In this document: positions 15,070-59,638 of the stretch, piece after piece
Layout: each line of letters starts with the position of its first letter
How positions within the stretch are numbered: the stretch's first letter is position 1
NCBI RefSeq assembly: GCF_964213995.1
Contig: NC_135825.1
Location: 12,090,001-12,154,000 of the forward strand
Length of the DNA stretch: 64,000 nt
DNA from: Mustelus asterias
Taxonomy: Eukaryota
Direction: 5' to 3'
Translations under genes and position numbers: made by a program
Notes under the pieces: generated by a model
The model's database searches: none
The model's input: the letters and a program-made list of their open reading frames with translations, nothing else
What the model was told of the DNA's origin: nothing

Positions 15070-15114
15070 CTGTGACACAGAGAATAGGAAATGAGCAGTG
15101 TTGGACTTTACAAT

Positions 15115-17520: not shown

Positions 17521-17599
17521 CTTTCGGCAAATTTGTAGTTTGGAATTGAGGAATGTGTTGGCGATACTGTTAAAACGTCACAAGGATTTTCAGGTCCAA
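17521..17599 (-). CDS. Gene A exon 6: Ser/Thr/Pro-rich stalk (V)GPENPCDVLTVSPTHSSIPNYKFAE(S)
   Basis: Acceptor gtttccttgtttcag|TT, donor AG|gtacgc; 79 nt, phase 1 to 2, joining the C2 exon to the TM exon in frame; conserved and open in the paralog at 52708-52786. Confidence 0.8.
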
Positions 17600-19909: not shown

Positions 19910-21540
19910 AGAACTTAGAACATAGAACATAGAACAGTACAGCACAGAACAGGCCCTTCGGCCCACAATGTTGTGCCGAGCTTTATCTGAAACCAAGATC
20001 AAGCTATCCCACTCCCTATCATCCTGGTGTGCTCCATGTGCCTATCCAATAACCGCTTAAATGTTCCTAAAGTGTCTGACTCCACTATCACTGCAGGCAG
20101 TCCATTCCACACACCAACCACTCTCTGCGTAAAGAACCTACCTCTGGTATCCTTCCTGTGTCTCCCACTACGAACCCTATAGTTATGCCCCCTTGTAATA
20201 GCTCCATCCACCCGAGGAAATAGTCTTTGAACGTTCACTCGATCTATCCCCTTCATCATTTTATAAACTTCTATTAAGTCTCCCCTCAGCCTCCTCCGCT
20301 CCAGAGAGAACAGCCCTAGCTCCCTCAACCTTTCCTCATAAGACCTACCCTCCAAACCAGGCAGCATCCTGGTAAATCTCCTCTGCACTCTTTCCAGCGC
20401 TTCCACATCCTTCTTATAGTGAGGTGACCAGAACTGCACACAATATTCCAAATGTGGTCTCACCAAGGTCCTGTACAGTTGCAGCATAACCCCACGGCTC
20501 TTAAACTCCAACCCCCTGTTAATAAAAGCTAACACACTATAGGCCTTCTTCACAGCTCTATCCACTTGAGTGGCAACCTTTAGAGATCTGTGGATATGAA
20601 CCCCAAGATCTCTCTGTTCCTCCACAGTCTTCAGAACCCTACCTTTGGCCCTGTAATCCACATTTAAATCAGTCCTACCAAAATGAATCACCTCACATTT
20701 ATCAGGGTTAAACTCCATTTGCCATTTTTCAGCCCAGCTTTGCATCCTATCTATGTCTCTTTGCAGCCTACAACAGCCCTCCACCTCATCCACTACTCCA
20801 CCAATCTTGGTGTCATCAGCAAATTTACTGATCCACCCTTCAGCCCCCTCCTCTAAGTCATTAATAAAAATCACAAAGAGCAGAGGACCAAGCACTGATC
20901 CCTGCGGCACTCCGCTAGCAACCTGCCTCCAATCCGAAAATTTTCCATCCACCACCACCCTCTGTCTTCGATCAGACAGCCAGTTACCTATCCAATCGGC
21001 CAACTTTCCCTCTATCCCACACCTCCTCACTTTCATCATAAGCCGACCATGGGGGACCTTATCAAACGCCTTACTGAAATCCATGTATATGACATCAACT
21101 GCCCTACCTTCATCAACACACTTAGTTACCTCCTCAAAAAATTCTATCAAATTTGTGAGGCACGACTTGCCCTTGGCGAATCCGTGCTGACTATCCCGGA
21201 TTAATCCGCATCTTTCTAAATGGTCGTAAATCCCATCTCTAAGGACCTTTTCCATCAATTTACCAACCACCGAAGTAAGACTAACCGGTCTATAATTACC
21301 AGGGTCATTTCTATTCCCTTTCTTAAACAGAGGAACAACATTCGCCATTCTCCAGTCCTCTGGCACCATCCCCGTGGACAGAGAGGACCCAAAGATCAAA
21401 GCCAAAGGCTCTGCAATTTCATCCCTTGCCTCCCAAAGAATCCTAGGATACATTTCATCAGGCCCAGGGGACTTTTCGACCTTCAGTTTATTCAAAACTG
21501 CCAGGACATCCTCCCTCCGAACATCTATTTCCTCCTATTT
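19910..21540 (-). mobile_element. Young CR1 LINE, 5'-truncated, open 498-aa RT ORF (19999-21495), in gene A intron 5
   Basis: KSPGPDEM, NYRPVSLTS, DFSKAFDKVPH, KFADD; (TTCTATG)n tail near 19915-19935. Confidence 0.95.
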
Positions 21541-21554
21541 CAACTATCACTTAC

Positions 21555-21878
21555 CAACACTGTTGATCTGTGCCACATAACTGCAATTCTCCCCTGATCT
21601 GTTGATCACTGACACTGAAACCATTTCACTGGATTTTTCTTCCTGGTGATTTGAGGCTGTGCAGTAATATTGATGATGTTGCTGTGTGAAGGATTGACAA
21701 TGTAGATCCAGTTTATTGGTGTCAGAGATCTCTGAATCTTCAGACGGGGTCTTTTCATACCATGTGTACTGAATGGGAAGTGATCCCTGGACAGACTCAC
21801 AGGAGACGGACACTGAGCCCCCAGAACATGAGGCATTTGGTGGTGATAGAAATTTAAGTTCAGGAACAGACACGGGTT
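21555..21878 (-). CDS. Gene A exon 5: Ig C2-type domain D4 (FCRL-like)
   Basis: ttttccacag|AA ... GTTG|gtaagt; 324 nt, phase 1-1; VSCESVQGSLPIQYTW...QYYCTASN. Confidence 0.92.
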
Positions 21879-23139
21879 CTGTGGAAAAGACAATCATTAA
21901 CGGATTTTCACAGTAACTTCATTGCAGTGTTAATGTAAACCTAATTGTGACACTAATTTATAAAAGCTTTAACAATAAACTTTAAAATTTTAAACTTTAG
22001 AATTACCAAAAAATTAAATTGTTTCATAGTCCCAATATTTCTACACCTCATCCAGGGTGTGAGGCGGAAGGGGAAGTGTTAGAGAGAGAGAGAGTTGGCA
22101 GTGGGAGCTTGGCCGAATGCAGGTAGTATCTATTGATTGCTGTCATGAACAGCAGATATTCATGATAGCAGATTAGTTAGTAACAATCATTGGAGTGTGA
22201 CCTGAGATAGACTGTGGATGTTTGCTGAGATAACGGAGACTTAAATATCTTTCCAAAAATCTAATCTTGACCTGAAATCCACCTCCGCTGCCAGTTGGAA
22301 TTGGGAATTTGGCGCTCAGCCAAATCTCCATTCACAGCAGCGGGACTGGATAATTCCAGCTGCGGACGAGTTTGGTGAATTCCAGCCATTGTTTGGAGTT
22401 GTATTTAACATTTAACAGTAAGTACCGTTTAACACTTAAGTGTGAGTACTGTTTAAAGTCGAGGGCGGGGTTTTATGGCCTCGAATGAGCGAGACGGAAA
22501 ATACCGCCCAAGGTCAACACCCTTGAGTCTGCCCCACACCCGCTCCGATACCATGGCGGGCGAGGCAGTAAAATTCCGACGTACGTATCATCCAAAGGAC
22601 ATGAGCTGGGAGATAGAAGCTATCCACTGGCAGCAACTGGAATAGTTAATTGGGGAAACTGGCTTGAACTGGTCATTTTGTACTGAGTCTCTTTGTTTTT
22701 GAACATATAAATTTAGACATTCTCAGTGCAAACAGCACTGGAGTCTGCCTTCAACCGAGTGTGGACGTTTAATGAGCTGAAGGAATTTACTACAGGGGAA
22801 GAAGTGAGCTGTTGGTGAGTATCTGGGGAGTATCCCGGAAGTGGGCAAGGTCTATTATCCAGGCATTAGGAGCAAGGGTGAGGTCCTTGCCAACTTGTTC
22901 ACCAGGAGAACGGGGTTCAAGGTGCAATAAAACTGACCCCATCTCTCTGGATCATTACTCTTGGCCTCTGAATTACAATTCCTGCAACATAATCATTGTT
23001 CTAACTGCCCTCTAGCTGCCAGACTCTGCACTGCTGTGGAGCCTCGGGATATCGGAGCTGTCAATGTCTCCTCCCAGGTAAAGCACCGATCAGACATTTC
23101 AGTCGAGAGTAATAAAGATAATCACGGAGAACAATGTAC

Positions 23140-23448
23140 CGTCAGATATTTGTAGCTTTACAGGAAACATTGAAAGGAGGCCGGGCTTATCAATACCACA
23201 GCTGTACCATCCTGCATCTCCTGAATGAAGATCCTCCATAGTAACAACAAATAATGCTTGTGTCTTGTGATCTGTGATCGACATTCTCCCTCGCCGTCCA
23301 TCTGGATCGTCTGATTTTACCAAAACAGAGCACTGACGACTCCAAGTTTTCACATGTGACTGAGACAATTTGTCATAGTGACAATCTATAGTGATCGATC
23401 TTCCCAAAACTCCTGTTACATTATTTTTTGCCCACAATGCACTTGCAG
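23140..23448 (-). CDS. Gene A exon 4: Ig V-type domain D3 (CD300/pIgR-like)
   Basis: tgtcttttcag|CT ... GACG|gtacat; 309 nt, phase 1-1; GRSITIDCHY...GRMSITD...DAGWYSCG. Confidence 0.92.
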
Positions 23449-24117
23449 CTGAAAAGACAACAGGTCAAAAATTGAACTGAAAATAATTGCTTCATACAAA
23501 CAGATATATTTCAATAGGATTTACCACTGTGTTCAGAGAAATCTCTCCAATACACCTTCTAATGCAATTGGATACTTCCTTGTTTGATATCGTTGGGCAC
23601 ATTGAATATGTGCTTCCGGCGGATTGATAATTAGACAACCATATTGAGATTGTATCCCAAGCCCTTTATAAAGCAAGACCCTGAGTGGTTCCATTAATCT
23701 TTTAGTCTTGGTTGGGACCTGGTGTGTTCACCACAGGTGTGTGGGAATTCTTTATTTTCATTTTGTACAATAGAAGCACGGTTCCTTCACAGCCGGCTCC
23801 TCGAGTTATTATATTCTCAAACAGCAATTCTCAGACAGCAGATTGTCTGCTCATGATCACGTTGCTCTTAGAGGGAGCTTATTGCTCACAAATTGGTGCT
23901 GAGCTTCCTACATCACAACAATGGCTCTGAATCAGTTCCAGCATTGACCAGAACGGACTTTAAAACTGTCCTGAAGATGTGAAAAGTGCAAAATAAATGC
24001 AATTCTATTTTTATTCCAATTGCTTCGAGCAACTGATAGAACATAAACCATGAGCAATTCAGACTGATGTTAATTTAAAAATTCGTTGTACTTTTTGAAG
24101 CGAAAAGAGATATTTAC

Positions 24118-24441
24118 CAATGTTGCTGATTTGTGTTAAATAACTGCAGTCATTCTCTGAAATGTGGATCACTGACACTGTAACCATTTCACTGGATTTT
24201 TTTCCCTGGTTATTTGAGGCTGTGCAGTAATATTGATGACGTCGCTGTTTGAAGGATTGACAATGTAGATCCAGATTATTGGTGTCAGAGATCTTTGAAT
24301 CTTCAGACGGGGTCTTTTCATACCATGTGTACTGAATGGGAAGTGATCCCTGGACAGACTCACAGGAGACGGACACTGAGCCCCCAGAACATGAGGCATT
24401 TGGTGGTGATAAAAATCTAAGTTCAGGAACAGACACGGGTT
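24118..24441 (-). CDS. Gene A exon 3: Ig C2-type domain D2 (FCRL-like)
   Basis: tttctttcccacag|AA ... ATTG|gtaaat; 324 nt, phase 1-1; closely similar to D4. Confidence 0.92.
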
Positions 24442-26455
24442 CTGTGGGAAAGAAACAAACATTCAGAAACTGACTGAGCATCTAAAAATCAAACACTCTG
24501 TGAATTTCAGCTCATCAACCTCTCATTCAGGGTCAGTCATGTTGCAATCTCACCAACACATCCAGCTCTCCATTTCTCTCCACCCTCCCAGCAGCCTGAA
24601 CTACAATGTCTGCTATTATATCAGAACATCGCAGCTCTCCAGATCAAACCATGAACCAGGACCGAAAGATTTAAATTTAATGGTGAGTGGATTAGATGAG
24701 ATTTGGGGCAATGGGTTATTTCACTCGGGGGATGTTGAGGGTCTGGAACTCACTGCCTGGAAGAGTGGTCGAGGGTGGGAGAGGCGGATAACCTGATCAC
24801 ATTAAACAAAATGGATTAAACTTGAGATACTGTAACCTACAGAGCTCTGGATCAAGAACTAGATGGTGGGATTAGATTGGATTGCTTGTTCAGTCAACCC
24901 AGTGTGGCACAGTGGCACAGTGATTAGCACTGCAGCCACATAGCACCAGGGACCCGGGTTCAATTCTAGCATTGGCTGTGTGGTCAGTGTGGAGTTTGCA
25001 CGTTTTCCCCGTGTCTGCGTGGTTTTCCTCTGGGTGCTTCAGTTTCCTCCCACAACCAAAGATATGCAGATACCCATGGGGAGGTGATGGCCCAGTGGTG
25101 TTATCGCTAGCCTATAAATCCATAATCTCATCTAATGTTCTGGGGACCAGGGTTCGAATCCCGCCATGGCAGCAGTTGGAATTTGATTTCAATAAAGAAA
25201 ATCTGGAATTAAGAATCTACTGATCACCATGAAACCATTGTCAGTTATTGGAAAACCCATCTGGTTCACTCATGTCCGTTAAAGAAGGAAATCTACCATC
25301 CTTTCCTGGTCTGGCCTACATGTGATGCCAGAGCCAAAGCAATGTGGTTAATTCTTGACTGTCCTCTGAAATGGCCTCGCAAACCTCTCAGGATGGGCAA
25401 TAAATGCCACCCAGCCAGCGATGCCCATGTCCACAAATGAATAAAACAAATACTGGCACCTCCCACCAGGCACCAGGCAGTGCCAATGTGGGTGGTGCTG
25501 GCGGGGGAGTTGGCATTCTGGGGGGTGGGGCCTATTGGGGGCTCAATGAGTTGGGGGGTTTTCAGTGACACTGTGCACTGGGATCAGTGTGAGAAGGAGA
25601 GAGGAGGGGGATCAGGGCTGGCTATCTGGGTGGGGGGAGATCGGGGCTGGCCCGGGAGAGCTCTGGTAGGCCAGTGATTGGATGGTTGTGGGGGGTCGGG
25701 ATGGCCAGCGATCGGGAGGCTAGCGGTGAGGGGGCCAGTGTGCATGCGCCACTCTCCGCAGTGACAGATCGGTGTGTGTGCAGTGGCTCACTCAGCACTA
25801 TACTGCCAGCCTCTCTAGTGGGATTTGGACCCGCTCACCACATTTCAGAGTGAATCAATCTGTGTCGGAGAATCGTTCTGGTCCGTCCCTTATGTTGTCA
25901 AATGAGCCTCTTCAGACACTGGAGTTGCAACACATCAAGGAAGCTGATCAGGAAACGTGTACTCCCTGTGTTGTGGGATAGCCCGTCAGTGAGTTGCTTG
26001 TCTCTGTTCATTCCTTTGTCTTGTGGAGCTCAGGGTCTGTGTGGAGTAGGCAGTTGCTGCTATTGGTGCTATTGGTCACCTGGGTCCTCATCTGAGGCCC
26101 AAAATAAAACAGCCTGAGAACCACCCATGCTGATCTGATAGATACAATCACCAAAATGTAACCCAGAAATACACATTACCATCTCTGTTGTGAAAGTCTG
26201 TAAATACTGATATTAAAACCTTTCACACAATCAGGCGAGAAATAAGCAGTGAGGTTCCAATGCTCCTTGGCATCTTTCCCAGTCACTTCTTCAGCCTCCC
26301 CCATTGCCTCTGTCTTCTGCCCTTGCTCAGTAACCCGAGCAGCCATAGTTAGATTTCACTAATTGCACTCACTGAGCGATTAATAGACTGAAATTGATAA
26401 CCCGTCTCTCACTGGGGGGATTTGATCACACACGGATTGACACATTTAATGTTTC

Positions 26456-29400
26456 TGATGCGCGACAATTAAGCACGTGGAACCAAGGCTTCGATATTGA
26501 AGGCTTTTATTGTGTAACAATGGAACTACTAACACGAATACACCAGTTCAGACTGAAGGGGTCCTGCCGGAGCAGGGGGTCTTATACCTCGCCACCGGAG
26601 GCGGGACCCCACTGGAATGTGCCATGATAACTCTTATAACAGGTAAACACCCTAACCCAACAACATTGTACAACCCCCACAGTAACAACACCCTAGCCCA
26701 ACAGTAACATAATAACAACCCCCAGTGGTGAACCAACGATGGTTCACCACATTCACCCCTCCTTTAAGAACAAAAGGTGGCGGGGTGCAAGAAAAAACAG
26801 GTCATATAAACAGAATTCACAAGTCCAGACGGTCTGGAGGACCGCACCGACGCTGTGATCTCCTCAACACCGGTTGCGAAACCGGAGCAGGTGCTTGCGG
26901 TGGCGTTCTTTCCAAAACAACGTCTGGCTGTCCCCTCAAGGACTCCCGGGCCGGTTGGCCCTGGTGAGGCGATGGTGCAGGGGATCCTGGAACCTTTGGT
27001 GGTGGTGGTGGTGGTGATGATGGTCGCGCCGATCTCCCGAGTCTCAGGCAAGCTGTACATGGGAGTAAAAGTGTTATGCACTGGTCCCGGTGCTGACCGC
27101 GCCACGTCTGGGGAAGCAATGAGGAGTAGTGGATTCGTGACTGGGGGAATAGGAGCGACAGGAGTTGCTACGTCCCCTGCGGGCGCCAGGTCTCTAATGG
27201 AGACAGTGTCCTCTCGCCCGTCAGGATATGCCACATAGGCATACTGAGGGTTGGCGTGGAGGAGTTGGACCGGTTCGACCAAGGGGTCGGACCTGTGAGC
27301 CCTCACATGTCGCCGCAGAAGGACGGGTCCTGGGTACGTCAACCAGGCTGGCAATGAGGTTCCCGAGGACGACTTCTGAGGGAATGAGAACACCCTCTCG
27401 TGGGGAGTAGCATTGGTTGCCGTACACAGGAGGGAGCGGATAGAATGGAGTGCCTTTGGAAGGACCTCCTGCCAACGGGAGACTGGAAGGCCCCTGGATT
27501 TCAGTGCCAGTAGGACAGCCTTCCAGACTGTAGCATTCTCCCTTTCCACCTGTCCGTTACCCCTAGGGTTGTAGCTCGTGGTTCTACTAGAGGCAATCCC
27601 GAATGAGAGCAGGAATTGCCTCAACTCGTTGCTCATGAACGACGAGCCCCTGTCGCTATGAATGTAGCAGGGGTACCCGAACAGGGTAAAAAGCTCACTG
27701 AATGCCTTGATGACGGTGGCAGTCGACGTGTCCGCACAGGGGACAACAAACGGAAACCGGGAATACTCGTCTATTATGTTGAGGAAATAGACATTCCGGT
27801 CCGTTGAGGGAAGGGGGCCCTTAAAATCCACACTCAGCCTCTCAAAAGGGCGAGTGGCCTTGACCAATTGTGCCCGGTCTGGTCGATAAAAGTGTGGTTT
27901 GCATTCTGCGCAACTCCGACAGCTTCTCGTCACTGACCTGACATCCTCCACCGAGTAGGGCAGGTTGCGGGCTTTGACGAAGTGGTAGAGTCTGGTGACT
28001 CCAGGATGACACAGATCATTGTGGAGAGCCTTCAAGCGGTCCTCCTGCATGATGGCGCATGTTCCGCGCGAGAGGGCATCCGAGGGCTCATTGAGCTTCC
28101 CTGGACGATACATAATATCGTAATTATAGGTGGAGAGCTCAATTCTCCACCGCAAGATCTTATCGTTCTTGATCTTGCCCCTCTGCGTGTTGCTGAACAT
28201 AAACGCCACGGATCGTTGATCCGTGATCAGGGTGAACCGCTTCCCTGCCAGGTAATGGCGCCAGTGTCTGACTGCCTCCACAATGGCCTGAGCCTCCTTC
28301 TCCACCGCTGAGTGCCGAATTTCGGGGCCTTGAAGGGTGCGGGAAAAGAACGCGACGGGCCTGCCTGCCTGGTTTAGTGTGGCGGCTAGGGCGAAATCAG
28401 ATGCATCACTCTCCACCTGGAAAGGGATGGATTCATCCACCGCGTGCATCGTGGCTTTCGAGATGTCGCTTTTCAAAGCCTTGAAGGCCAATTGGGCCTC
28501 CGGCGTAAGTGGGAAGGTCGTGGACTTAATGAGCGGACGAGCTTTGTCCGCGTAGTTGGGGACCCACTGTGCATAATACGAAAAGAACCCGAGGCATCTC
28601 CTCAGTGCTTTCGTGCTAGCGGGCAAGGGAAGTTCAGTAAGTGGGCGCATACGGTCTGGATCAGGGCCAATGACCCCGTTTTCCACCACGTATCCGAGGA
28701 TGGCTAACCTACGCGTACGGAATACGCACTTCTCCCTGTTATAGGTCAGATTCAGGCGAGATGCAGTGCGCAGAAAGTGTTGGAGATTCATGTCGTGGTC
28801 CTGCTGGTCATGGCCGCAGATGGTGACGTTATCCAGGTACGGGAAGGTAGCCCGCAACCCGTTCTGGTCCACCATTCGGTCCATAGCACGCTGGAAGACC
28901 GAGACCCCATTGGTGACACCAAATGGAACCCTGAGGAATTGGTATAGACGACCATCCGCCTCAAAAGTCGTATATTGTCGGTCCTCTGGGCGGATGGGGA
29001 GTTGATGGTAGGCGGACTTAAGGTCTATGGTAGAAAACACTCGGTACTGCGCAATCTGATTGACCATATCAGAAATGCGCGGGAGAGGATACGCATCCAG
29101 CTGCGTATAACGATTAATGGTCTGACTATAGTCGATGACCATCCGAGGTTTGTTCCCGCTTTTGACTACCACGACCTGCGCTCTCCACGGACTAGCACTG
29201 GCCTGTATGATCCCTTCCTTGAGGAGCCGCTGAACCTCAGATCTAATAAAGATCCGGTCCTCAGCGCTGTAACGCCTACTTTTAGTAGCGATGGGCTTGC
29301 AGCCAGGTACCAGATTTTTAAAAAGGGATGGTGTAGTGATTTTCAGGGTGGATAGATTGCATGCGGGGCGCTTTGGGCAATTTGGAGGCTGCGGCTGATT

Positions 29401-31158
29401 CCCTACTGCCAGTGAAGGGAGTGGCCCACCGTACTGTAGGATCACACTCTTCATGTGGACCATAAAGTTTAGTCCGAGGAGAATTGGCGCGCAAAGGTGA
29501 GGTAACACAAGGAGCCTGTATTGCTCGTAAATTGTGCCCTGTACCTCAAGAGTTACCATACATCGTCCTTGGATCGGTACAGACCGGGACCGTGATGCCA
29601 TGGAAATTGTCTGCTTGGCAGGGAGAACCCGGAGTCCACACCTTTTAGCAGTTTCAGGGTGTATGAAACTTTCGGTGCTCCCACTGTCAAACAGACAATT
29701 CACAGTTCGACCACTAACCTTTATATCCATCATGGAATTTTCAAGTCTGTAGTGCCTGGTCTGGTCCAGGGAGATCGACGCCACCGTTGGCCCCTGGGCA
29801 TCACTGCATGCTGCCGATGTGGATGCTGAGGACCCCTGCTGGTCGCTCCTAGTCGTCGTGGACCATGATGGCCGCCCCCATGAATCGCACATGGGCGAGG
29901 GCGCCAAGCGCAGCGACTCCTGGTGGTCTTCCTCCTCCTCCGTCAGCCACGATGGCGCCGTCCTGGGATCGCACATGGTCGGACCTCGTGGGTACTGCGA
30001 CGCTGAAGGAGATTGTCTCCGTTCTGGAGGGTTACAAGCTGCACTGCCGTTTTTAGGCTTGGACCTGCAGACTTTGCCGTAGTGGCCTTTTTTACCGCAC
30101 TGGCTGCAGATTGCCGTTCTTGCCGGACACTGTTGCCGTGGATGCTTGGCCCCACCACAAAAATAGCATCGCTGGCCACCTGGAGCTGCCGCCGTCGTCG
30201 GATCGATCTGGGAGCGCGGGTTAGCGGGGCGAGGAGGGAGCTGAGCTTGCTCCAGCCACGTTGACTGCACGTGGTCCTCGGGGTACAGCGCCAAGCTCTT
30301 CGACGCCGCTTCCAGCATCACGGCCATCTCCATTGCTTGGGTCAAGTCGAGTTTCCCCTTTTCCAGCAATTTAAGCCTGATGTACGAGGACCCTACCCCT
30401 GCTACGAACGCGTCTCGGGCGAGGTCGTACATATATTGTTCGGCTGATACGTCTTTACAATCGCAACCCCTGGCAAGCTGCAGGAGCTCATTGGCGTAGT
30501 CCTCCATGGTTTCGCCCGACTGCCGACGTCGTGTAGCGAGGAGGTAACGAGCATGTATCTCGTTGGGTGGCTTCGTGTACCTTTTTTTTAGGAGCTCGAC
30601 GGCACCCGGGTAAGTGGGAGCTGCACGAATGGCGAGATAAATCGTGTCACTTACCCTTGCGTGGAGGACCTGGAGTTTATCACTGTCTGTAGTGATAGCT
30701 ACTGAGGCTGCCAGGTAGTCCTCGAAACACTTCCACCAATGGTCGAATGTGTTAGCTGCACCGACCGCACGTGGGTCCAGTGTCAGACGATCCGCTTTTA
30801 AGATCTGTTCCATACTCTCTTTTTTTTTGTACAGCTGTGAGTTTTCTGTTACACAATAAAATTGATGCGCGACAATTAAGCACGTGGAACCAAGGCTTCG
30901 ATATTGAAGGCTTTTATTGTGTAACAATGGAACTACTAACACGAATACACCAGTTCAGACTGAAGGGGTCCTGCCGGAGCAGGGGGTCTTATACCTCGCC
31001 ACCGGAGGCGGGACCCCACTGGAATGTGCCATGATAACTCTTATAACAGGTAAACACCCTAACCCAACAACATTGTACAACCCCCACAGTAACAACACCC
31101 TAGCCCAACAGTAACATAATAACAACCCCCAGTGGTGAACCAACGATGGTTCACCACA
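26456..31158 (-). mobile_element. Full-length Ty3/Gypsy LTR retrotransposon in gene A intron 2
   Basis: 296-bp LTRs at 26456-26751 and 30863-31158, identical by eye; TG..CA ends; 5-bp TSD GTTTC (26451-26455 and 31159-31163); polypurine tract at 26752-26765. Confidence 0.97.
26764..30813 (-). CDS. Gypsy single-ORF Gag-Pol polyprotein (about 1349 aa from MEQILKADRL)
   Basis: Two CCHC knuckles, protease LFDSGS, RT SPW..VVV / IDLKSAYHQ / PFG / YLDN, RNase H SDAS..EKEA..TDQ, integrase HHCC and DDE; order PR-RT-RH-IN; no stops. Confidence 0.95.
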   Translation of the reverse strand: MEQILKADRLTLDPRAVGAANTFDHWWKCFEDYLAASVAITTDSDKLQVLHARVSDTIYLAIRAAPTYPGAVELLKKRYTKPPNEIHARYLLATRRRQSGETMEDYANELLQLARGCDCKDVSAEQYMYDLARDAFVAGVGSSYIRLKLLEKGKLDLTQAMEMAVMLEAASKSLALYPEDHVQSTWLEQAQLPPRPANPRSQIDPTTAAAPGGQRCYFCGGAKHPRQQCPARTAICSQCGKKGHYGKVCRSKPKNGSAACNPPERRQSPSASQYPRGPTMCDPRTAPSWLTEEEEDHQESLRLAPSPMCDSWGRPSWSTTTRSDQQGSSASTSAACSDAQGPTVASISLDQTRHYRLENSMMDIKVSGRTVNCLFDSGSTESFIHPETAKRCGLRVLPAKQTISMASRSRSVPIQGRCMVTLEVQGTIYEQYRLLVLPHLCAPILLGLNFMVHMKSVILQYGGPLPSLAVGNQPQPPNCPKRPACNLSTLKITTPSLFKNLVPGCKPIATKSRRYSAEDRIFIRSEVQRLLKEGIIQASASPWRAQVVVVKSGNKPRMVIDYSQTINRYTQLDAYPLPRISDMVNQIAQYRVFSTIDLKSAYHQLPIRPEDRQYTTFEADGRLYQFLRVPFGVTNGVSVFQRAMDRMVDQNGLRATFPYLDNVTICGHDQQDHDMNLQHFLRTASRLNLTYNREKCVFRTRRLAILGYVVENGVIGPDPDRMRPLTELPLPASTKALRRCLGFFSYYAQWVPNYADKARPLIKSTTFPLTPEAQLAFKALKSDISKATMHAVDESIPFQVESDASDFALAATLNQAGRPVAFFSRTLQGPEIRHSAVEKEAQAIVEAVRHWRHYLAGKRFTLITDQRSVAFMFSNTQRGKIKNDKILRWRIELSTYNYDIMYRPGKLNEPSDALSRGTCAIMQEDRLKALHNDLCHPGVTRLYHFVKARNLPYSVEDVRSVTRSCRSCAECKPHFYRPDRAQLVKATRPFERLSVDFKGPLPSTDRNVYFLNIIDEYSRFPFVVPCADTSTATVIKAFSELFTLFGYPCYIHSDRGSSFMSNELRQFLLSFGIASSRTTSYNPRGNGQVERENATVWKAVLLALKSRGLPVSRWQEVLPKALHSIRSLLCTATNATPHERVFSFPQKSSSGTSLPAWLTYPGPVLLRRHVRAHRSDPLVEPVQLLHANPQYAYVAYPDGREDTVSIRDLAPAGDVATPVAPIPPVTNPLLLIASPDVARSAPGPVHNTFTPMYSLPETREIGATIITTTTTTKGSRIPCTIASPGPTGPGVLEGTARRCFGKNATASTCSGFATGVEEITASVRSSRPSGLVNSVYMTCFFLHPATFCS

Positions 31159-31189
31159 GTTTCCATGGAGATTTTTATGATCATTTGGA

Positions 31190-31710
31190 ACATTTGGAAT
31201 ATTGTGTCCAATTCTGGTCACCACACAACCAGAAGGATGTGGAGGCTTTGGAGAGAGTGCAGAAAAGGTTGACCAGGATGTTGCCTGGTATGGAGGGTAT
31301 TACCTATGAGGAGAGTTTGAATGAGCTGGGATTGTTCTCCCTGGAAAGACAGAGGCTGAGGGGCAACCTGAGAGAAGTTTATAAAATTATGAGAGGTGTG
31401 GATAGAGTGAACAGTTGGAAGCTTTTTCCCAGGGCAGAAATGACAATTAGAAGGACGCACAAGTTCAAGATAACGGGGGAAAGATTCAGTGGAGATGTGC
31501 GGGAGAACTTTTTTACACAGAGGGTGGTGGGCGCCTGGAATGCACTGCCAGGTGAGGTGGTTGAGGCACTTATATTAGCTATATTTAAGGTTTTATCTTG
31601 GTAGACGTATGAACAAGCAGGGAATAGAGGAATATAAGCATTGGTAAACGTGATCAGCGCTGGAAGGGCCTGTTCCTGTTCTGTCCTGTTCTTTGTTCTT
31701 TGTTCTTTGA
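31190..31710 (+). mobile_element. CR1 LINE 3' fragment
   Basis: HLEYCVQFWSPH...FFTQRVVGAWNALP; (TGTTCTT)n tail. Confidence 0.9.
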
Positions 31711-32353
31711 TCCCTTTAAGGGGCTTTCACCATATTGGATTATTTAATTGTTTAATTTGCCGATTTGTTAACTTTTAATCTGTCAGCTTCACCCTGAATT
31801 TTCAGTGGTTTATTTGAAAGAAGCACAAACTGACACATTGCGGATACATCTGGATGTTGGGAGTTTGACTGGCTTCCCAACATATTGTCAATTTCTGTGT
31901 ATTTAACCCCCTCTGTGCTCCCCCACCCACCCCCACAGCCCCACCATTCAGCGCTAAACCAACAAGGTACAATTACTACCAACTGGCTGCTCACTTCACT
32001 TTGTTAATGTCTGACTATTGGATTGATCTGGACTGTAAAAATCTGACAGTGTGATATTTAAGACATTTCAGAGACAGGAAAATATTCTGAGCATCGCGGG
32101 TAATGTCTTTCACAATATCCTGCAGTTAAAGGAATTGTTTGTCTGATTATGTTTGAAGTTCTTGATCAGAATGTTGGACAGGCCACGAATTGAGTTTGTG
32201 TCACAAGAGTCGGATTTCCAGATCTCTGCCCTCTAGCTGCCAGACTCTGCATTGCTGCAGAGCCTCGGGATATCGGAGCTGTCAATGTTTCCTTGTGGAT
32301 AAAACATGGATCAGACATTTCAGTAATAAAGAAAATCATTCAGAATAATGTAC

Positions 32354-32674
32354 CGTAAGATATTTGCAGCTCCACGGTTACCTTTGGATCTAAGTCAGGT
32401 ATATCAATTCCACAGCGATACCATCCTGCATCTCCTGAGCGAAGATCCTCCATCGTAACAGCAAATATTCCTTGTGCCTTGTTATCTGTGATCGACATTC
32501 TCCCTCGCCGTCCATCTGGATCATCCGTTCTCACTAAATATGAGCACTGTTCAGTCCAACCGTGACACCAATATTTCACGTTTTGTTTGTATTTCCCTTT
32601 ATAATTGCAATTTATTGTGATCGATCTTCCCACAATTCCTGTGACTTTCTTTTCTGCCCACAATGCACCTGAAA
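32354..32674 (-). CDS. Gene A exon 2: Ig V-type domain D1 (CD300/pIgR-like)
   Basis: gttgtctcctcag|TT ... TACG|gtacat; 321 nt, phase 1-1; GRSITINCNY..KYWCHGWTEQC..GRMSITDN..DAGWYRCGI, with the extra C-C' Cys pair typical of CD300/TREM/pIgR. Confidence 0.93.
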
Positions 32675-33365
32675 CTGAGGAGACAACATTTCAGCAATTG
32701 ACCAAGTAAATAACTGCTTCATACAGAGAGAAACATTTTAATAAGATTTACCACTGTGTACAGAGGAAACTCTCCAATACCTGTATTCATCATTCTCTTT
32801 CTAGTTTGTGATCAATGAAAACATGAATATAGAGCCGTGCTGTCAGTGCCAAAGTACTTCACTGACAATGATTTCTTGTTATGTACAGTGGCCATTGTTA
32901 TTGTGTCACCTTGTCACTCAAGCTTTGCACTGGCGCCTCTGAATGGGTGGATTGCAGGGTCAGGTCCCACTCCAGAGACTGGAGTATAAAATCTACATTA
33001 ACATTCCAGTGTAATACTGAGGGACAAGATGGCTCAGATTTTCCTCCCTCAGTCATGTTCAAAGAGCTCGGTGATGCCATTCAGGTGAAAGGTTCATCTG
33101 ACACCCAGGTCTGGAGGTTCCCTGTCATGGAGAAAATCCCGGGAATGGCTGGAATTTCAAAGTCCTAAGAGTGGGAGCGGGACTGGAATCAGGCTGCATA
33201 CACGATTCGTGGAGGCGAATTGTCATTAAATTCAACACCTGCCTTGATTTAAGTGAGATTTTGGATGAACAGGAGTGTGGAATCCGGTGTGTGCAGATTA
33301 GAATAGTTAAGAGAAGGTTTGAACTTGGTGGATTCTTATGGACAGCCAGGGTATGCCTTCTGGAC

Positions 33366-33468
33366 AGGAAAGTTACTCTTTGGAAGAGGAAAGTTACTCT
33401 TTGGGAGGGGAAAGTTACTCTTTGAGGGGGGAAAGTTCCTCTTTGTGGGGAGAAATTTATTCTTTGGG
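33366..33468. repeat. 21-bp minisatellite, about 5 copies (GGAAAGTTACTCTTTGGRAGR)
   Basis: Direct tandem repetition visible; ORFs show 7-aa periodicity. Confidence 0.85.
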
Positions 33469-34489
33469 ACAAACTCTGGTGAGTGGTCAGGGCCAGAGTG
33501 ATTATCTGGTTGTTTCAATTATTCTATTTATTAACCATGGCGCTGGGGCACAGAAACAGGCCTTGTGTCCAGCTCACCTCCGGGCTGAGCAGCCTGTGGA
33601 TTTGTTCCTGGGTCACCCGTCTCGATTCATTTTTTAATGCCTTTCCTGACTCAATGAACACGACCCAGGGATGAGATGAGGAGATTGTTTTCACTCAAGG
33701 TGTTGGGAATCTTTGGAATTCTCCACCGCAGAAAGCTTTAGATGTACAGTCTTGAAGGATATTAAACACAGAGATTTATACATTTTTGTGGTACTAACAT
33801 AATCGAGGGATATGGGAATAGTGCGGGAAATAAGATTTGAGGTTGGAGATCAGTCAGGATGTTGTTGAATGATGGAGCAGGCTCAAAGGGACAAATGGCC
33901 ATCTCCTGCTCTTATTTCTAATGTTCATCTTGAGGGGGAGAGGTGGCAGTATGAATCAAAAATTCCATTGCAGCCAGCATAATAGCATCAGTTTAATATG
34001 GGGCTGGTGTGAAAATTTAGATTTACTTTAAAAAGAAAATGATTACATCTTTGAAGGTCAAAGTAGACCAACCATGTACAAGTGATTGGATGGTACCATG
34101 GTGAGCCCGGCTGCCTCACAGGGCCAGTGACTTGGGTTCAATTCTGGCCTCAGGTGACTGTGTGGAGCTTGCATATTCTCCCATGTCTGCGTGGGATATC
34201 GCAGGGTGCTCCAGTTTCTACCTACAGTCCAAATATGTGCAGGTTAAGTTGATTGGCCATGCTAAATTGTCCCTTAATGTCCAAAGATGTATAGGTTAGG
34301 AAGTTAGTGAGGGAAATATGTGGTGTTACGGGGATAGGGCCTGGGTAACATGCTTAGCCGGAGAGTTGTTGCAGATGTGATGGGCCGAATGGCCTCCTTT
34401 TGTACTGTTGAGATTCTTTGAAGCAGATTTACCAACAGAGCTTCATAAAACAATATTTCATTCGTAATAATTTAAATAATACAAACAAA

Positions 34490-35150
34490 AGAAGGAAAAT
34501 GGTCTGTTGGCCTTCATAGCGGGAGGATTTGAGTACAGGGATAGGGATGTTTTGCTGCAATTGTACAGGGCATTGGTATGGCCTCACCTGGAGTATTGTG
34601 TGCAGTTTTGGTGTCCTTATCTGAGGAAGGATGTCCTTGCTATAGAGTAAGTACAGTGAAAGTTGACCAGGCTGATTCCTGGGATGACAGGTCTGCTTTA
34701 TGAAGAGGGACTAAGTCAGTTAGGATTATATTCACTGGTGTTTAGAAGAGTGAGGCGGGATCTCATAGAAATTTATAAAATTTGAACAGGGTTACAGAGG
34801 GTAGATTCAGAAAGAATGCCCTCAATGGTGAGGGAGTCCAGAACTAGGGGGTCATAGTTTGAGGATAAGGGGCAAACCATAAAGAACTGAGATGAGGAGA
34901 AACTTTTTCACCCAGAGGGTGGTGAATGTGTGGAATTCACTCCCACAGAATGTAGTTGAGGCCAAAACGTTGTCTGATTTCAAGAAAAAATTAGATAGAG
35001 CTCTTGGGGATAAAGGGATCAAGGAATATGGGAAGAAGGGGATCAGGGTATTGAATTGGATGATCAGCCATGATCAAAATGAATGGCGGAGCAGGCTCGA
35101 AGGGCCGAATGGCCTACTCCTGCTTCTAGTTTCTATTTTTCTATGTTTCT
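34490..35150 (+). mobile_element. Degenerate CR1 LINE 3' fragment
   Basis: LAFIAGGFEY, HLEYCVQFW, MRRNFFTQRVVNVWNSLP; (TTTCTAT)n tail. Confidence 0.85.
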
Positions 35151-35774
35151 AATTGCAAACTTGAGGAATATTTTCCTGGAGCCTTTGTTGCCTCTGCAGT
35201 CTTCAGAGTCAATTCAATGAGCAATAATCTGCAATGGATCACAGGCATCTCTCAACGTGAGGGAGGGACAATTGGTTACATTTAGTGTGGGGGGCAGGAA
35301 TGGGGAAAGGTGAGGAGGCAGATTTCCATAAACTACCACAGCCGCTCTGAGGATTGAACCCCTGCCATTGGAATCATTCCGCATTGCACTCCAAACAACT
35401 GAGCCAATCAAACCCTCCAGTCTCCAGGATATATTGAGCATGAAACTACATTAACAAGTTAACTTTTATTGGACTGAAATGTGTGGCTTCTGCATTTTAA
35501 TTATATTAATCATGTAGCTTTTTAACAAAAATAAATAGGTTAATTTATATTCACAATCAATAATGCCGTTTATTATTTGCTGGGTAAATATTTCTGTGGT
35601 ACAATACTATCAACAAAATAGCTACAAATATCACACAAATTCATTAATTTATTTTTGCTGAGTTTTTGTAGCTTTACATGTCTCCAAGTATTTCAATATC
35701 TCTGCGGGATAAACCATGCACGAGACTTAATCTAACACTCATCATCTCGGGATCCAGCTTTGTCCCTTACTCAC

Positions 35775-35811
35775 CAGGCAGAGAAAAGATGACAAGAATC
35801 AGAATCCACAT
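35775..35811 (-). CDS. Gene A exon 1: signal peptide MWILILVIFSLP(V)
   Basis: ATG at 35811-35809 in context ACAATGT (A at -3); donor CCTG|gtgagt; 37 nt, phase 1; continues VSGALWA in exon 2 as a hydrophobic leader. Confidence 0.88.
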
Positions 35812-43499: not shown

Positions 43500-46442
43500 T
43501 GAGCCAATCCTCTATCCATGCATGAATATTCCCTACAAAACCATCTTGCGTATTAACCTTTTGTATGGTACCTTATCAAATGCCTTTTGAAAATCCAAAT
43601 ATACAACATCGACTGGTTCTCCTCTATCTACTCTGATTGATACCTCTTCAAATAACTCTAGTAAATTTGCCATTCATGACTTTCCCTTCATGAACCCAAT
43701 CTGACTCTGCCTGATCACATTATAACTTTCCAAAGGCCCTGATATTCTTTCCTTAATAATTGATTCTGACATTTATCCAACAACTAAATTTAAACTAATC
43801 CAGGGAATTTCCCATTCTGAGGTTATACAGGCACATTGTTCCATCCTGGGAAAGTGGAATATATCATTGGAGCGACTGGTATCCAGTGCATGGAAAAATC
43901 ATGTTGCCAATTCCTTCCAGAATTTGTTCATCTTTAAATTGACAAAGATTAAGATAAGAATATGAAACAAGAAATGTAGACATTTAATCAGCAAACAGAT
44001 CAATTATTCTCCAGATGTCGATATACAACCTGAAGGTCACAGCCACTGTTTGGATTTTGATTCCTCCACTAAATTTTTGATCCAAATCATGTTGGTTGGT
44101 TTTTGTTTTTTTATTAGTGTCACAAGTCGGCTTACATTAACACTGCAATGAAATTACTGAGAAAATCCCCCAGTCGCCACACTCCGGCGCCAGTTCGGGT
44201 CACTGAGCGAGAATTCAGCATGGCCAATGCACCCGAACCAACACAACTTTCAGACTTCATTTAATAATGAAAAAACATACTATTATGTAGATTTGTTAAA
44301 AGAAATGTTCAAAGCTGGATGAGGATTGAATATTTGACCAGGATGCAAAATTGCTTCGATGTAGATGGAATCCCAGAATCTTCATTTTCCCACTTTGGTC
44401 CAACTGTGAGAATTGGATTCATTGAGTGACTGGAAAAGAAAATCATCAGATTCATTGAGATTGGGAGAACAATGCATCAATTGACATTTCAGTCTTGAAC
44501 AGAATTCTGGAAATGGCAACAATTTGGGGCAGTTTCGAGATCACATTGATCGCCCTTTGCATGTGCGCTGGGAAACACTCGTTTGGATCCTTCATGAAGA
44601 CACGTAACCTTATTTACCCACAGAAAACCAATGTTCCCCTGCTGCTGTGATTATGGACAATTGACTGGAGAAATTGATTGCTCTGTCCATGTTTCTAAAA
44701 ATATTTTATACAGTCCAGTTGGTGCTTCCAGCAACAACATCATTGGGTCTGTGTCTCAGCCTCTTACTGCTGTCTGAATCATTTGAAATCTCTTCCAGTT
44801 CCTGTCCAGAAACAGTCAGCCCTGTTGCCTTTTTATAGCCTTTCCAATTTCCTTCCTTATTCTTTTGCTGACAGTTTAATAAGATTGGATGGTAAGATGG
44901 AAGGGTTCTTCCATGGATGGGTTACACAGGAACACAGTAACAAGAGCAGCTCATTCAGCCCCTCGAGCCTGTCACACCAACCTGCAACTCCACACAGACA
45001 CTCACCCAAGACCAAAATCGAACCTGGGTCCCTGTCTTATCTAATCCCAGCTGTGAGAATTCTAATTGGCCCAGCATCCACAGATTTTAGGATGGATTAG
45101 TTCCAGATTTCCATGACTAGCTGTGTGAAAATAATGCTTCCTAATTTTACTCCTAAGTATCTAAGCCCTCACTTTTGGGTTATGGCCCCGTGTACTCCAT
45201 CTCCCCACTGGGCAAAGAGTTTCTCTGTACCCACCATACTGAATCCCATAAAAACTTCAATCACCTATCCCAGCAACCTCCAAGTGTGAGGAAATGCAGC
45301 AAATTTGTGCAATCTCTGCACATAATTTACTCCATTCTTCCCTGTATCATTCTGATGTATTGATATTGCAGAGATGATGGTTTAGTGTCAATGTCACTGG
45401 GCTAGTAATCCAGAGGTTGATAGTAAAGTGCTGGGAACATGATTTCAACATAGTAGCTGGTGGAATATAAATGCAATGAATTCAATTTCAATTGATGAAT
45501 GAATCTGGAATTGAAAATCTGACCAATGGTGACCAGGAAGCTTGTCATCAATTGCTGTAAAAACCCATCTGGTTGGTTGGGGATGGTGATAAACGGTCAT
45601 AAATTGTCATAAATCCTCACTGATATCCGTCAGGGAAGGATATCTGTTTTCCTGATGCAGTCTGACCTCCATGTGACCCCAGACCCACCGTGATGTGTTT
45701 GATTCCTAACTGTCTTCTGAAATGGCCGAGCAAGCCACTCGGATCTGGCAATTAGGGATGGGCAACAATTCTGCCCTTGCCAGTGACGTCCACATCCCGT
45801 GAAATAGAACAAAAAGACACTGCATCCCTTCCGAGGCCAATATTTTGTTCCTGTGATTCGGACACCATCCAGAACAAACAATTCAACATTGCATTATAAA
45901 ATCCTCCAGTGATAAAGTGAAACTTCCATTTATGAGTGGAAGTTATCCTGGACAAAGTCAGCTGATCACTTCAGGATGGATGCAGCTGCAACAAGGATCA
46001 GGAACATTGACACAATCGAAAACAAACAGTCCCCTTGATCTTTCCTACATAACATCAGCAACACTTCAAAACCAAACCATATAAAATGTAAGATACTTTG
46101 GGTGGACTTTCCACCCAAGTTCCTCTGGTGGGGTGAGGGAGGGAGGAGGGCGGAGGGGGCTGGACAAGAGCAGAAGATCTCGCGAGAGCCCCCAATCATG
46201 TTATTACTTTGATGGGAAGTCTCTTTGTGATTGTCCCCAGCTCCCATCACTGACATCACAGGATTCCCAACGTTGAACAACATAATCAATTTGCATGTCA
46301 TTATCAAGACCTGGCACCTGATCAACCCCCGCTCCCCCCACACCCCCCAACCCTCACTTCCACTGTTCGATGATCCACTCACATCAGTGTGAGGGCACAC
46401 TGGTGTGCATTATGATTGATGGCCATGGCATGTACCAGGAGG

Positions 46443-48288: not shown

Positions 48289-48388
48289 CTGAGATTTTCT
48301 CGTGAACCATGTGACCGAAATCACACAAATCACCAGGAGGGTAAAGAGCCCCCAGCGAATCACATTCCAGATGAAGAAACTGAGCAAA
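48289..48388 (-). CDS. Gene B transmembrane exon with charged Arg (NxxR): LLSFFIWNVIRWGLFTLLVICVISVTWFTRKSQ
   Basis: Acceptor ttctgtatttcttccag|T, donor CAG|gtgagg; 100 nt; phase-2 start matches the stalk exon; hydrophobic helix containing one Arg. Confidence 0.85.
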
Positions 48389-50618: not shown

Positions 50619-50712
50619 CACTCACTTTTCGTCCATGCCACACCAATCTGACCTGTGTCACACAACTGCAGTTCTCCCCTGATCTGATGATCACTGACAC
50701 TGGAACCATTTC
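50619..50712 (-). pseudogene. Relic 3' end of a C2 Ig exon at the duplication breakpoint
   Basis: Translates EMVPVSVIIRSGENCSCVTQV versus D4 EMVSVSVINRSGENCSYVAQI; abuts a CR1 fragment at 50713; possible donor gtaag at 50618. Confidence 0.8.
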
Positions 50713-52707
50713 TGGGACCTGTGGACATTCACTCCAAGGATTTTCAAATCCTCCACATACCCCAGTATCCTCCCATTTATTATCTCACCATTTGCTTTGT
50801 TTGACCTGCTCAAATGCATCACCTCACACTTCTCTGGGTTGAATTCCATTTGCCACTTTTCTGCCCACCTGACCAGTCCATTGATATCTTCCTGCAACCG
50901 ATAGCAATCCTCCTCGCTATCTACTGCATTAGTAATTTTCATTACATTCCATCTAAATCATTAATATATGCCAGAAAAAACAGGGGACCGAGCACTGAGC
51001 ATTGGAAACAGCCTTCCAGTCACAAAAACAGCCATCAACAATCATCCTTTGTTTCCTGCCACAATTAATTCTTGGCCATTTGTTTACGGAAGTGGGTTTT
51101 GAAATTATACAGCACTTTTCATGGCCTTTGGATGGCCTAAAGAATTTTATAATCTGGGAAGTATTTTTAAACAACCGCCACTGTTGTGATATGGGAGATG
51201 TGGCAACCAATTTGCACACAGCAAAATCTCAGAAACAGCAGTGAACTTTGACCAGATCAATATTGGCCATTTCTTCAGAGATCTCCTTGTCTGCTTTTTC
51301 TGTAGATAAGAAGTGACCTGCTGCGTATTTCCAGCAGCTTTTTCATCATTTTGATGTTTAGTTGGTATTTTTTCCTCATCACCATTGTAACCTCCGTGTT
51401 TACATTGGACAACAATTTCTGCTCTTTCTGTGTGTCCCAACTATGTTAGGGGTAGTGGGTTTTAACAGAAAAAGAAAATACTTGGTTTGCACACGTAGAT
51501 TCAAGCAAGCACAAACCAGGTTTTATTGATGAGCTGCTCTCTGCACTGCATCAAGTACAAAACTGACAGTCACACAGCAGCCTGAGCACGCACCCTAATG
51601 ACATCACATCAAATCAACCCATTTTAAAACTCACACCTTCATGATGAAGCGAACACAACAACATCCCGCCAAGGTTTCTGATCTGAGAGTTATTGAAAAA
51701 TGATGCCCAGTCTCCCCGATCGTCAGAGACTGGACATATGACCCAAGATGTGTGTCAGGACCCTGCAGATGACCCAACATGATGATCTCCATGGGAATTG
51801 CCTGGGACATTGGAACTTCCAACGGACAGTTCTGCTGTACCCTGGGTCCCTCTGTGAAAATCTTCAGCTCTGGGTAAGAGTCAGACACTTCAAACAATTC
51901 CATGGGGCTTAACTGGATAGTTACCCAGGAAATGTTAGACTGAAAGAATCAAGTTTAATTCCTGGGTAATCACAGAACTGACCCCCGAATAATCACACTG
52001 ACCCCCTGGAGTCCCCCCAATCCTCTGATTAACCCCCTGACACACCAACTATCACCCCACACTCCGCCAATTCCACCTGATCTTGTGACTATGCCACAAC
52101 CTGAGCCAATCCGATTATTCCCTCTGACTACCCTTTGCACCCACCACTTGATTACCCAATGTCCAAATCTGATTAGCCCCCAAACCAGGCTACCCCTGCC
52201 AACCTGACCCAATTGCCACACTATTCATCTACCACCTCATCAACCTACAACCTCACCCACCTGCAACCCTACCCTCCTGTCACTTCATCAACAGACTACC
52301 TCACCCAACTGCCACTCTACCCACCTCACACGCTTGTGACCTCACTCATCTGTTTTCTCACCCACCTACCATCCTTGCCTCCGACTAGCAACACATCTAT
52401 ACACCTGTCTCCCTATCCATCTTTCACCCGACCCACCTGTGCTCCTACAGAGTTCCGATGGAGTTCTCCGAGGGACACTGCGCTCCACAGTTCTGGAGAA
52501 TCTGGAGTCGGAAGATCAGGCAAGAAATGTGGAGCTGAGTCGAGGGTGGAAAGCTTCAAGCGGAGTGGCAATCCAACAATGATTGCTGCTCTGTGACTGG
52601 CCCAGGACAATAAATGACATCCATTCTCACGCCAAAGTTGTTAAAGAGGATTTAATCACTCACACAGAAGCCATGTCATTTAAACACTAACAATAAAAAC
52701 AGCGTAC

Positions 52708-52786
52708 CTTTCAGCAAATTTGGAGTTTGGAATTGAGGAATGTGTTGGCGATACTGTTAAAATTTCACAAGAATTTTCAGGTCCGA
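52708..52786 (-). CDS. Gene B stalk exon (V)GPENSCEILTVSPTHSSIPNSKFAE(S)
   Basis: Splice sites intact; 79 nt; 4 amino-acid differences from the gene A stalk. Confidence 0.75.
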
Positions 52787-56751: not shown

Positions 56752-57075
56752 CAACGCTGTTGATCTGTGCCACATAACTGCAATTCTCCCCTGATCTGTT
56801 GATCACTGACACTGAAACCATTTCACTGGATTTTTCTTCCTGGTGATTTGAGGCTGTGCAGTAATATTGATGATGTTGCTGTGTGAAGGATTGACAATGT
56901 AGATCCAGTTTATTGGTGTCAGAGATCTCTGAATCTTCAGACGGGGTCTTTTCATGCCATGTGTACTGAATGGGAAGTGATCCCTGGACAGACTCACAGG
57001 AGACGGACACTGAGCCCCCAGAACATGAGGCATTTGGTGGTGATAAAAATTTAAGTTCAGGAACAGACACGGGTT
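56752..57075 (-). CDS. Gene B Ig C2 domain D4
   Basis: Same splice sites as gene A exon 5; one amino-acid change (TWYEK to TWHEK). Confidence 0.9.
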
Positions 57076-58336: not shown

Positions 58337-58645
58337 CGTCAGATATTTGTAGCTTTACAGGAAACATTGAAAGGAAGCCGGGCTTATCAATACCACAGCT
58401 GTACCATCCTGCATCTCCTGAATGAAGATCCTCCATAGTAACAACAAATAATGCTTGTGTCTTGTGATCTGTGATCGACATTCTCCCTCGCCGTCCATCT
58501 GGATCGTCTGATTTTACCAAAACAGAGCACTGACGACTCCAAGTTTTCACATGTGACTGAGACAATTTGTCATAGTGACAATCTATAGTGATCGATCTTC
58601 CCAAAACTCCTGTTACATTATTTTTTGCCCACAATGCACTTGCAG
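58337..58645 (-). CDS. Gene B Ig V domain D3
   Basis: Same splice sites as gene A exon 4; one amino-acid change (PGLLS to PGFLS). Confidence 0.9.
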
Positions 58646-59314: not shown

Positions 59315-59638
59315 CAATGTTGCTGATTTGTGTTAAATAACTGCAGTCATTCTCTGAAATGTGGATCACTGACACTGTAACCATTTCACTGGATTTTTTT
59401 CCCTGGTTATTTGAGGCTGTGCAGTAATATTGATGACGTCGCTGTTTGAAGGATTGACAATGTAGATCCAGATTATTGGTGTCAGAGATCTTTGAATCTT
59501 CAGACGGGGTCTTTTCATACCATGTGTACTGAATGGGAAGTGATCCCTGGACAGACTCACAGGAGACGGACACTGAGCCCCCAGAACATGAGGCATTTGG
59601 TGGTGATAAAAATCTAAGTTCAGGAACAGACACGGGTT
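59315..59638 (-). CDS. Gene B Ig C2 domain D2
   Basis: Same splice sites and same translation as gene A exon 3. Confidence 0.9.

Follow-up and report, generated by a model that had tools for sequence, protein, structure and literature searches.

An arginine-bearing transmembrane exon in a predicted activating receptor of the MDIR family in Mustelus asterias

A 100-nucleotide exon on the minus strand of the window (the whole stretch of Mustelus asterias DNA analysed here, G000:C25:12090001-12154000, 64,000 nucleotides long) encodes a transmembrane (TM) segment with an arginine at its outer end. Judged by its sequence, the gene to which this exon belongs, hereafter gene A, is a receptor of the MDIR family. 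We predict that it is the activating member of a receptor pair with gene B, an inhibitory-type gene in the same window, and it probably couples to FcR-gamma or CD3-zeta. The spliced model of gene A, on the minus strand throughout, has the order V-C2-V-C2-stalk-TM-short tail and encodes 513 amino acids without an internal stop. Its leader and first V exon lie beyond the window (G000:C25:12162780-12162744 and G000:C25:12159642-12159322); inside it are the first C2 exon (59315..59638), the second V exon (58337..58645), the FCRL-like second C2 exon (56752..57075), a 79-nucleotide stalk exon of a type found in inhibitory genes (52708..52786), the TM exon (48289..48388) and the coding part of the last exon (44382..44429). 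This last exon, 15 codons and a stop, is conserved downstream of all 12 close copies of the TM exon and gives a tail with neither a signalling motif nor a tyrosine, in agreement with the short tail proposed in an earlier note on this DNA.

The TM exon is flanked by a polypyrimidine-AG acceptor and a GT donor, runs from phase 2 to phase 0, and has a second in-frame acceptor 9 nucleotides downstream. One of its frames yields LLSFFIWNVIRWGLFTLLVICVISVTWFTRKSQ, in which the N-V-I-R codons occupy 48355..48366 (minus strand), with the asparagine codon starting at 48366 and the arginine codon at 48357; across the family the arginine is invariant and the asparagine variable. The best 19-residue Kyte-Doolittle mean is 2.06 in this frame, against 0.46 in the frame containing FAQFLHLEC, and the third frame contains stops. 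A rough hydropathy scan puts the arginine at the edge of the best hydrophobic segment, at its outer end. The gene A C2 exon leaves in phase 1 and alone would select the frame with stops; the stalk exon shifts phase 1 to phase 2, and the TM frame is regained. Intact splice sites, hydropathy and stalk phase thus agree with the earlier note that the TM segment is real in this frame. The FAQFLHLEC frame, named there as the possible alternative, is polar rather than hydrophobic, clashes with the phase-2 donors and is broken by a stop in the most diverged copy, L012. Counts of synonymous and non-synonymous codons between the window exon and L012 (1/10, 2/12 and 2/9 in the three frames) did not tell the frames apart. 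An arginine followed by 16 uncharged hydrophobic residues is found five times in the window's six-frame translation, and one of the five, the gene A TM, has asparagine at -3; the TM segment is therefore not a chance occurrence, although the four-letter NxxR motif carries little information of its own. Two candidates for extra exons, one a conserved stretch of 64 intronic nucleotides (near 49066-49128) and the other near 44690-44980, were rejected, the acceptor or the frame being lost among paralogues. The intron below the TM exon also holds a minisatellite (47421-47926) that is open in several frames.

A DNA search recovered the 12 close copies of the TM exon, all on contig C25 between 11.89 and 12.52 Mb. 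Every one has a phase-2 donor upstream, belonging to the 79-nucleotide stalk in four copies, to an extended C2 exon in three and to a mucin-like (Ser/Thr-rich) stalk in five. Of the 12, 9 keep the first acceptor and 11 the second, in-frame one, and no copy lacks both. Together with one diverged arginine-bearing TM exon and at least seven related uncharged TM exons, they form a cluster of about 0.8 Mb.

For transcripts, 4 of 15 listed runs were aligned to 47960-54200. One 1314-nucleotide contig of run X3 (record 25), a run that is only guessed to be RNA, aligns to 48289-48390 and nowhere beyond, with 5 of 102 letters different; it stops exactly at the donor on one side and two bases beyond the acceptor on the other, and the same two bases end the stalk exons. 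The alignment is evidence that exons of this type are spliced in a relative, rather than that the window's own copy is expressed. Contigs of runs X1 and X14 span the TM exon with intron attached, and no TM-stalk joint is among the joints listed from the four runs. Two NCBI paralogue models, P0025 and P0006, have the same TM frame and tail and use the gene A tail exon. The models over the gene A copy itself (P0002 and P0003) omit the TM exon and fuse units; P0002, P0003 and P0006 merge successive tandem genes and omit the Arg-TM exon, so that activating members are under-annotated. In one activating paralogue (L019:1250-1420) the tail is cut to 9 residues instead of 15 by a premature stop.

Several lines of evidence place gene A in the MDIR family. 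A search with its C2 exon matched 141 proteins, and the 120 listed, all from cartilaginous fishes, include skate MDIR5 (65%) and MDIR3 (68%). Over the whole protein, 275 of 496 aligned residues are identical to MDIR5 (ABC86800.1; 55%) and 261 of 489 to MDIR3 (53%); the TMs of gene A and MDIR5 share 17 of 31 residues. MDIR1 and MDIR4 are absent among the protein matches listed. Set beside the description of the family in the accessible part of PMC3031540 and the database names, gene A has CD300/pIgR/TREM-like V domains alternating with FcR-like C2 domains, similarity to named MDIRs, and a multigene family of activating-type and inhibitory-type members around it. Its V domains exceed the Pfam V-set cut-off, and pIgR and CD300 lead the PDB matches, with TREM lower (the query was the first V domain of gene B, 100% identical to that of gene A). 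For the C2 domains the first PDB match is FCRL5, whose aligned domain has an identical GSLPI-x-Y stretch, and LRC chains are absent among the PDB matches for the C2 and V exons. The earlier note was therefore right that CD300/pIgR-like V domains and FCRL-type C2 domains (GSxPIxY) occur in one protein.

The combination of these domains with an arginine-bearing TM, in which that note saw modules kept in separate families in mammals, is not new. MDIR5 of the clearnose skate (ABC86800.1; P0068) already has the same V-C2-V-C2-stalk-TM-short tail order and a homologous TM of the form WxVxRW; on this comparison the CD300/FCRL domain mix is already known from the skate protein. As in the gene A cluster, the MDIR family is multigenic, with ITIM-bearing members such as MDIR3. 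Gene A differs from MDIR5 in having asparagine rather than lysine at -3; its stalk exon, which is of inhibitory type, and its almost identical inhibitory twin also set it apart. Searches of the openly searchable literature gave no description of this TM from a shark, and the papers on NxxR TMs that were searched name neither sharks nor MDIR.

What is conserved in the TM? A pattern with fixed W, R, W and F is present in 44 of 120 MDIR-family proteins (the best 120 of 141). Circularity was avoided by scoring all proteins with a matrix that was trained on the pattern matches and covers only positions +2 to +19. The 45 TMs found in this way all have the arginine and the tryptophan at +1; tryptophan at -4 is present in 44 and asparagine at -3 in 5. 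Matrix matches and later ones, with one bacterial row dropped, amount to 48 distinct chondrichthyan TMs, in which position -3 is occupied by K (19), D (11), S (8), N (7), T (2) or E (1). The asparagine is kept in gene A and its 11 close paralogues and occurs in both sharks and batoids. Tyrosine stands at -7 in 33 of the 48 and tyrosine or phenylalanine in 42 (gene A has Phe), whereas none has DYT before the TM. A charged residue in the helix core and an acidic residue at +12 to +19 are likewise found in 0 of 48; at +20 to +22 an acidic residue is present in 16, and gene A has none. On these counts the family signature reads [YF]x2[WY]x3RW, the arginine in it is the functional signature, and the asparagine is dispensable in the family.

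The accessible text of PMC6557307 defines the LRC TM by the arginine, by a neighbouring residue that is invariant, by DYT and by an acidic residue at the C-terminal end; the invariant asparagine of NxxR is printed there as an 'invariable Asp at -2'. NxxR TMs are also carried by Xenopus FCRL and SLAM receptors (PMC2413239, PMC6557307); about 50 such exons are counted in Xenopus (PMC4536121), and in the Xenopus TM1 genes the TM and tail share one exon (PMC2413239). In gene A they are on separate exons, a single exon being found only in the diverged L120 paralogue. In the part of the Xenopus supplement that was searched, which holds Ig-domain alignments, no TM motif was found. Measured against the published definition, the gene A TM is not of the LRC NxxR type that the earlier note had assigned to it, and the shark family's TM shares only the arginine. 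The N-proximal position of that arginine stood up in all 45 TMs; the asparagine (7 of 48), the DYT, the acidic C-terminal end and the exon arrangement did not. Similarly, the WNxxRW form looked for in chondrichthyan proteins recurs as far as its arginine and second tryptophan are concerned, with asparagine only in those 7. A 35-column profile of 18 TMs run against 1.84 billion representative proteins gave 16 matches at E<=0.001, 14 of them family members and 2 unrelated repeats; no LRC, XFL or bony-fish TM was among the 16, in a search without a positive control and of low power, the profile being short and hydrophobic. Against the PDB, the TM profile gave a single chance match.

Gene B (10387..35811, minus strand, 603 amino acids) consists of a leader (35775-35811), first V (32354-32674), first C2 (24118-24441), second V (23140-23448), second C2 (21555-21878), stalk (17521-17599), an uncharged TM exon that also enters in phase 2 (14981-15069), an exon after the TM (13387-13439) and a last exon (10387-10662) with two matches to the ITIM pattern, IVYASV and VTYATL, all on the minus strand. 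The ectodomains of A and B are identical at 437 of 439 residues (99.5%), differing at residues 318 and 371, and we infer that the two receptors share a ligand. The segment 52274..64000, with the ectodomain exons common to both genes, is 98.6% identical to 17087-28824. An intron of both genes contains an LTR retroelement, at 26456-31158 and from 61653 upward; the first copy has a 1396-codon frame with protease/RT/integrase-like motifs recognised by eye, and it appears to be a young insertion since its 296-bp terminal repeats are identical.

Gene A looks like a recent chimera, its ectodomain coming from an inhibitory gene and its TM from an activating one, with the join at about 50713. At this junction (50649..50715, minus strand) a 64-nucleotide remnant of the last C2 exon of an activating gene abuts an inhibitory-type intron; above about 50715 the region aligns to inhibitory genes (92-99%) and below 50712 to activating genes (93-96%). 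The remnant sits within the intron that precedes the TM exon and has a GT donor. In the simplest reading, a deletion fused the 5' part of an inhibitory gene to the TM and tail of an activating one, and the fused gene was then amplified in tandem to four units; since TM exons of either type begin in phase 2, the frame would have survived the fusion. The four units (G000:C25 12138289, 12174877, 12212170 and 12249124) are in tandem, about 36-37 kb each, and could reflect real amplification or partly assembly duplication.

The outer-end arginine of the gene A TM would dock onto an FcR-gamma (or CD3-zeta) dimer at the dimer's aspartate, and gene A, as a predicted activating MDIR, would signal through these chains. 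The coupling is suggested because the position of the arginine matches that of the adaptor aspartate: in their sequences, each residue stands at the outer end of its helix. The genome contains two TCR_zetazeta TM exons above the Pfam cut-off, both with CYxLD, one FcR-gamma-like (L074:1504-1599, contig C275) and one CD3-zeta-like (L073:1504-1602, contig C17); within this one Pfam family the two names are presumptive, taken from general sequence features. An exon-wise search of the genome gave no match to the DAP10 Pfam model, which does not prove absence, and the openly searchable literature yielded nothing relevant on shark adaptors. In LRC and Xenopus XFL receptors an N-terminal TM arginine mediates FcR-gamma association (PMC2413239, PMC6557307). 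Charge rules for adaptor choice are nevertheless loose, since FcR-gamma binding of catfish IpLITR 2.6b survived neutralisation of its TM lysine (PMC4810170) and mouse LMIR8 has a TM lysine yet couples to FcR-gamma (PMC5974347). Adaptor-independent surface expression, which the earlier note would have taken as refuting its proposal, would be a weak refutation, because NxxR receptors are usually expressed at the surface without FcR-gamma (PMC6557307) and because of the catfish case (PMC4810170).

Does the arginine engage an adaptor at all? The Arg-Trp pair might do no more than anchor the helix at the membrane interface, and gene A would then engage no ITAM adaptor and make a decoy or adhesion form competing for the ligand of its inhibitory twin. 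Such a role would suit the location of the arginine at the edge of the hydrophobic segment and the motif-free tail, and the 2006 MDIR paper is said to describe MDIR5 as having neither activating nor inhibitory motifs. However, a mere anchor would tolerate lysine or loss of the arginine, and the family has an uncharged TM class that does without it, yet all 45 TMs of the short-tailed forms in sharks and rays keep it; we regard the decoy as rather improbable. Activation through DAP10 or DAP12 instead of FcR-gamma or CD3-zeta seems very improbable: the CD300-like V domains would suit it, as would the use of DAP12 by many CD300/TREM proteins and of DAP10 by the arginine-bearing NKG2D, but a central charged residue is present in none of the 48 TMs, and the exon-wise search left the DAP10 model unmatched. 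It is unlikely, too, that the window's copy is a silent or mis-assembled duplicate of an exon type that is functional in other paralogues. The near identity of the four units (about 98-100%), the leftover exon fragment with its GT donor in the intron above the TM exon and the lack of a TM-stalk joint among those listed for 47960-54200 in the four runs could be read in this way; against it, the 513-residue frame is free of internal stops and has canonical splice sites, the units are not alike at every position (L002 against L006), and all four contain the junction. Coupling to FcR-gamma or CD3-zeta is the reading that we prefer.

A different question is where the TM module came from. Possibly, though we hold this tentatively, it is truly homologous to the NxxR module of LRC, XFL and SLAM receptors, older than the split between sharks and bony fishes and spread by exon shuffling, whose asparagine later decayed in most sharks and rays; the signalling mechanism would be as above, and only the ancestry would differ. 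The tyrosine at -7 (33 of 48; 42 with phenylalanine) is consistent with this, if the spacing of the DYT tyrosine from the arginine in mammalian receptors is comparable, as are the presence of asparagine in both sharks and batoids and the fact that asparagine codons are one base change from those of Asp, Lys, Ser and Thr. In the diverged paralogue with a single V domain, one exon contains both the TM and the stop, as in Xenopus TM1 genes (PMC2413239), and the module has been reused by the LRC, FCRL and SLAM families (PMC6557307). Against common descent are the rarity of the asparagine (7 of 48), the lack of DYT and of an acid at +12 to +19 in all 48, a tryptophan at +1 that is invariant and one at -4 that is nearly so, both outside the published LRC definition, and the serine at -3 of the diverged paralogue. 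The 16 profile matches among 1.84 billion proteins, none from LRC, XFL or bony fish, count in the same direction, with little power and no positive control. Equally tentative is the further proposal that the chondrichthyan Y-x3-[N/D/K/S]-x2-R-W helix may be the oldest surviving NxxR module for FcR-gamma docking, carried on a pre-LRC CD300/FCRL mosaic and recently swapped onto an inhibitory ectodomain through the shared phase-2 junction. The bearing on LRC, FCRL and CD300 ancestry that the earlier note had seen is weaker than supposed there, since earlier publications already show the mosaic of domains as well as NxxR TMs in families other than the LRC.

Among known systems, the Xenopus XFL TM1 receptors resemble gene A in their FCRL-type C2 domains, N-proximal TM arginine and short tail, and they are intermingled with uncharged-TM ITIM forms as in the shark cluster. 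For XFL2, dependence on FcR-gamma has been shown (PMC2413239). In contrast to gene A, the XFL receptors have no described CD300-type V domains, a conserved asparagine, and TM and tail in one exon instead of two. The LRC receptors LILRA2, NKp46, FcalphaR, GPVI and OSCAR share the outer-end TM arginine, the short tail and the same predicted adaptor; they differ in their LRC-type C2 ectodomains, of which no chain was among the PDB matches for the C2 exons, and in the invariant asparagine, DYT and acidic C-terminal end, which the shark and ray family lacks. CD300/CMRF35 and pIgR are similar in their V domains and in paired activating and inhibitory forms, and some CD300 members couple to FcR-gamma (PMC5974347). 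However, CD300 has a single V domain and, in activating forms, a central lysine, unlike gene A with its four Ig domains, alternating FCRL-like C2 domains and no central lysine. The Siglec-5/14, Siglec-11/16 and CEACAM pairs, so far as the sources available describe them, parallel genes A and B in having near-identical ectodomains with activating and inhibitory ends, homogenised by recombination; their domains are unrelated, and the gene A junction still shows its leftover exon fragment.

Should the adaptor inference be true, about one-third of MDIR-family proteins (44 of the best 120 of 141), MDIR5 among them, would be activating receptors coupled to FcR-gamma or CD3-zeta, and this route would be placed in cartilaginous fish. 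The FcR-gamma-like exon of M. asterias contrasts with a 2014 survey of shark genomes, the accessible part of which reports no homologues of FcR-gamma, FCRL or pIgR (PMC4016189). The near-identical A/B pair would offer a clean system for activation versus inhibition on one ligand.

Flanking the cluster on the left are a gene for CCDC48 (EFCC1) and a pair of G-protein alpha exons on opposite strands (L091:1932-3230, L097:4272-4499, L100:3439-3660). Such genes lie on human chromosome 3 and not at the LRC, CD300 or FCRL loci. Tweety and NHERF genes serve as synteny markers of the LRC and CD300 regions. Tweety matches fall on C23, C12, C5 and two small contigs, with none on C25, whereas the LRC family is linked to Ttyh1; the NHERF marker was not found on C25 either. 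The thirteenth arginine-bearing TM, at C25:12642092 with serine at -3, belongs to the diverged single-V gene L120 (G000:C25:12635256-12642200, plus strand), whose WSVLRW TM shares one exon with the stop and has a near-identical counterpart in whale shark (P0109); it is a candidate MDIR1-like gene, MDIR1 being a receptor that we take to have a charged TM. Inhibitory-type genes with long V-C2 repeats are found at G000:C25:12025403-12081459 (plus strand, about 24 Ig exons), 11964625-12007903 and 12341716-12384592, and more diverged V and uncharged TM exons occupy the right end of the cluster (L122:7631-8089, L123, L126 and L127).
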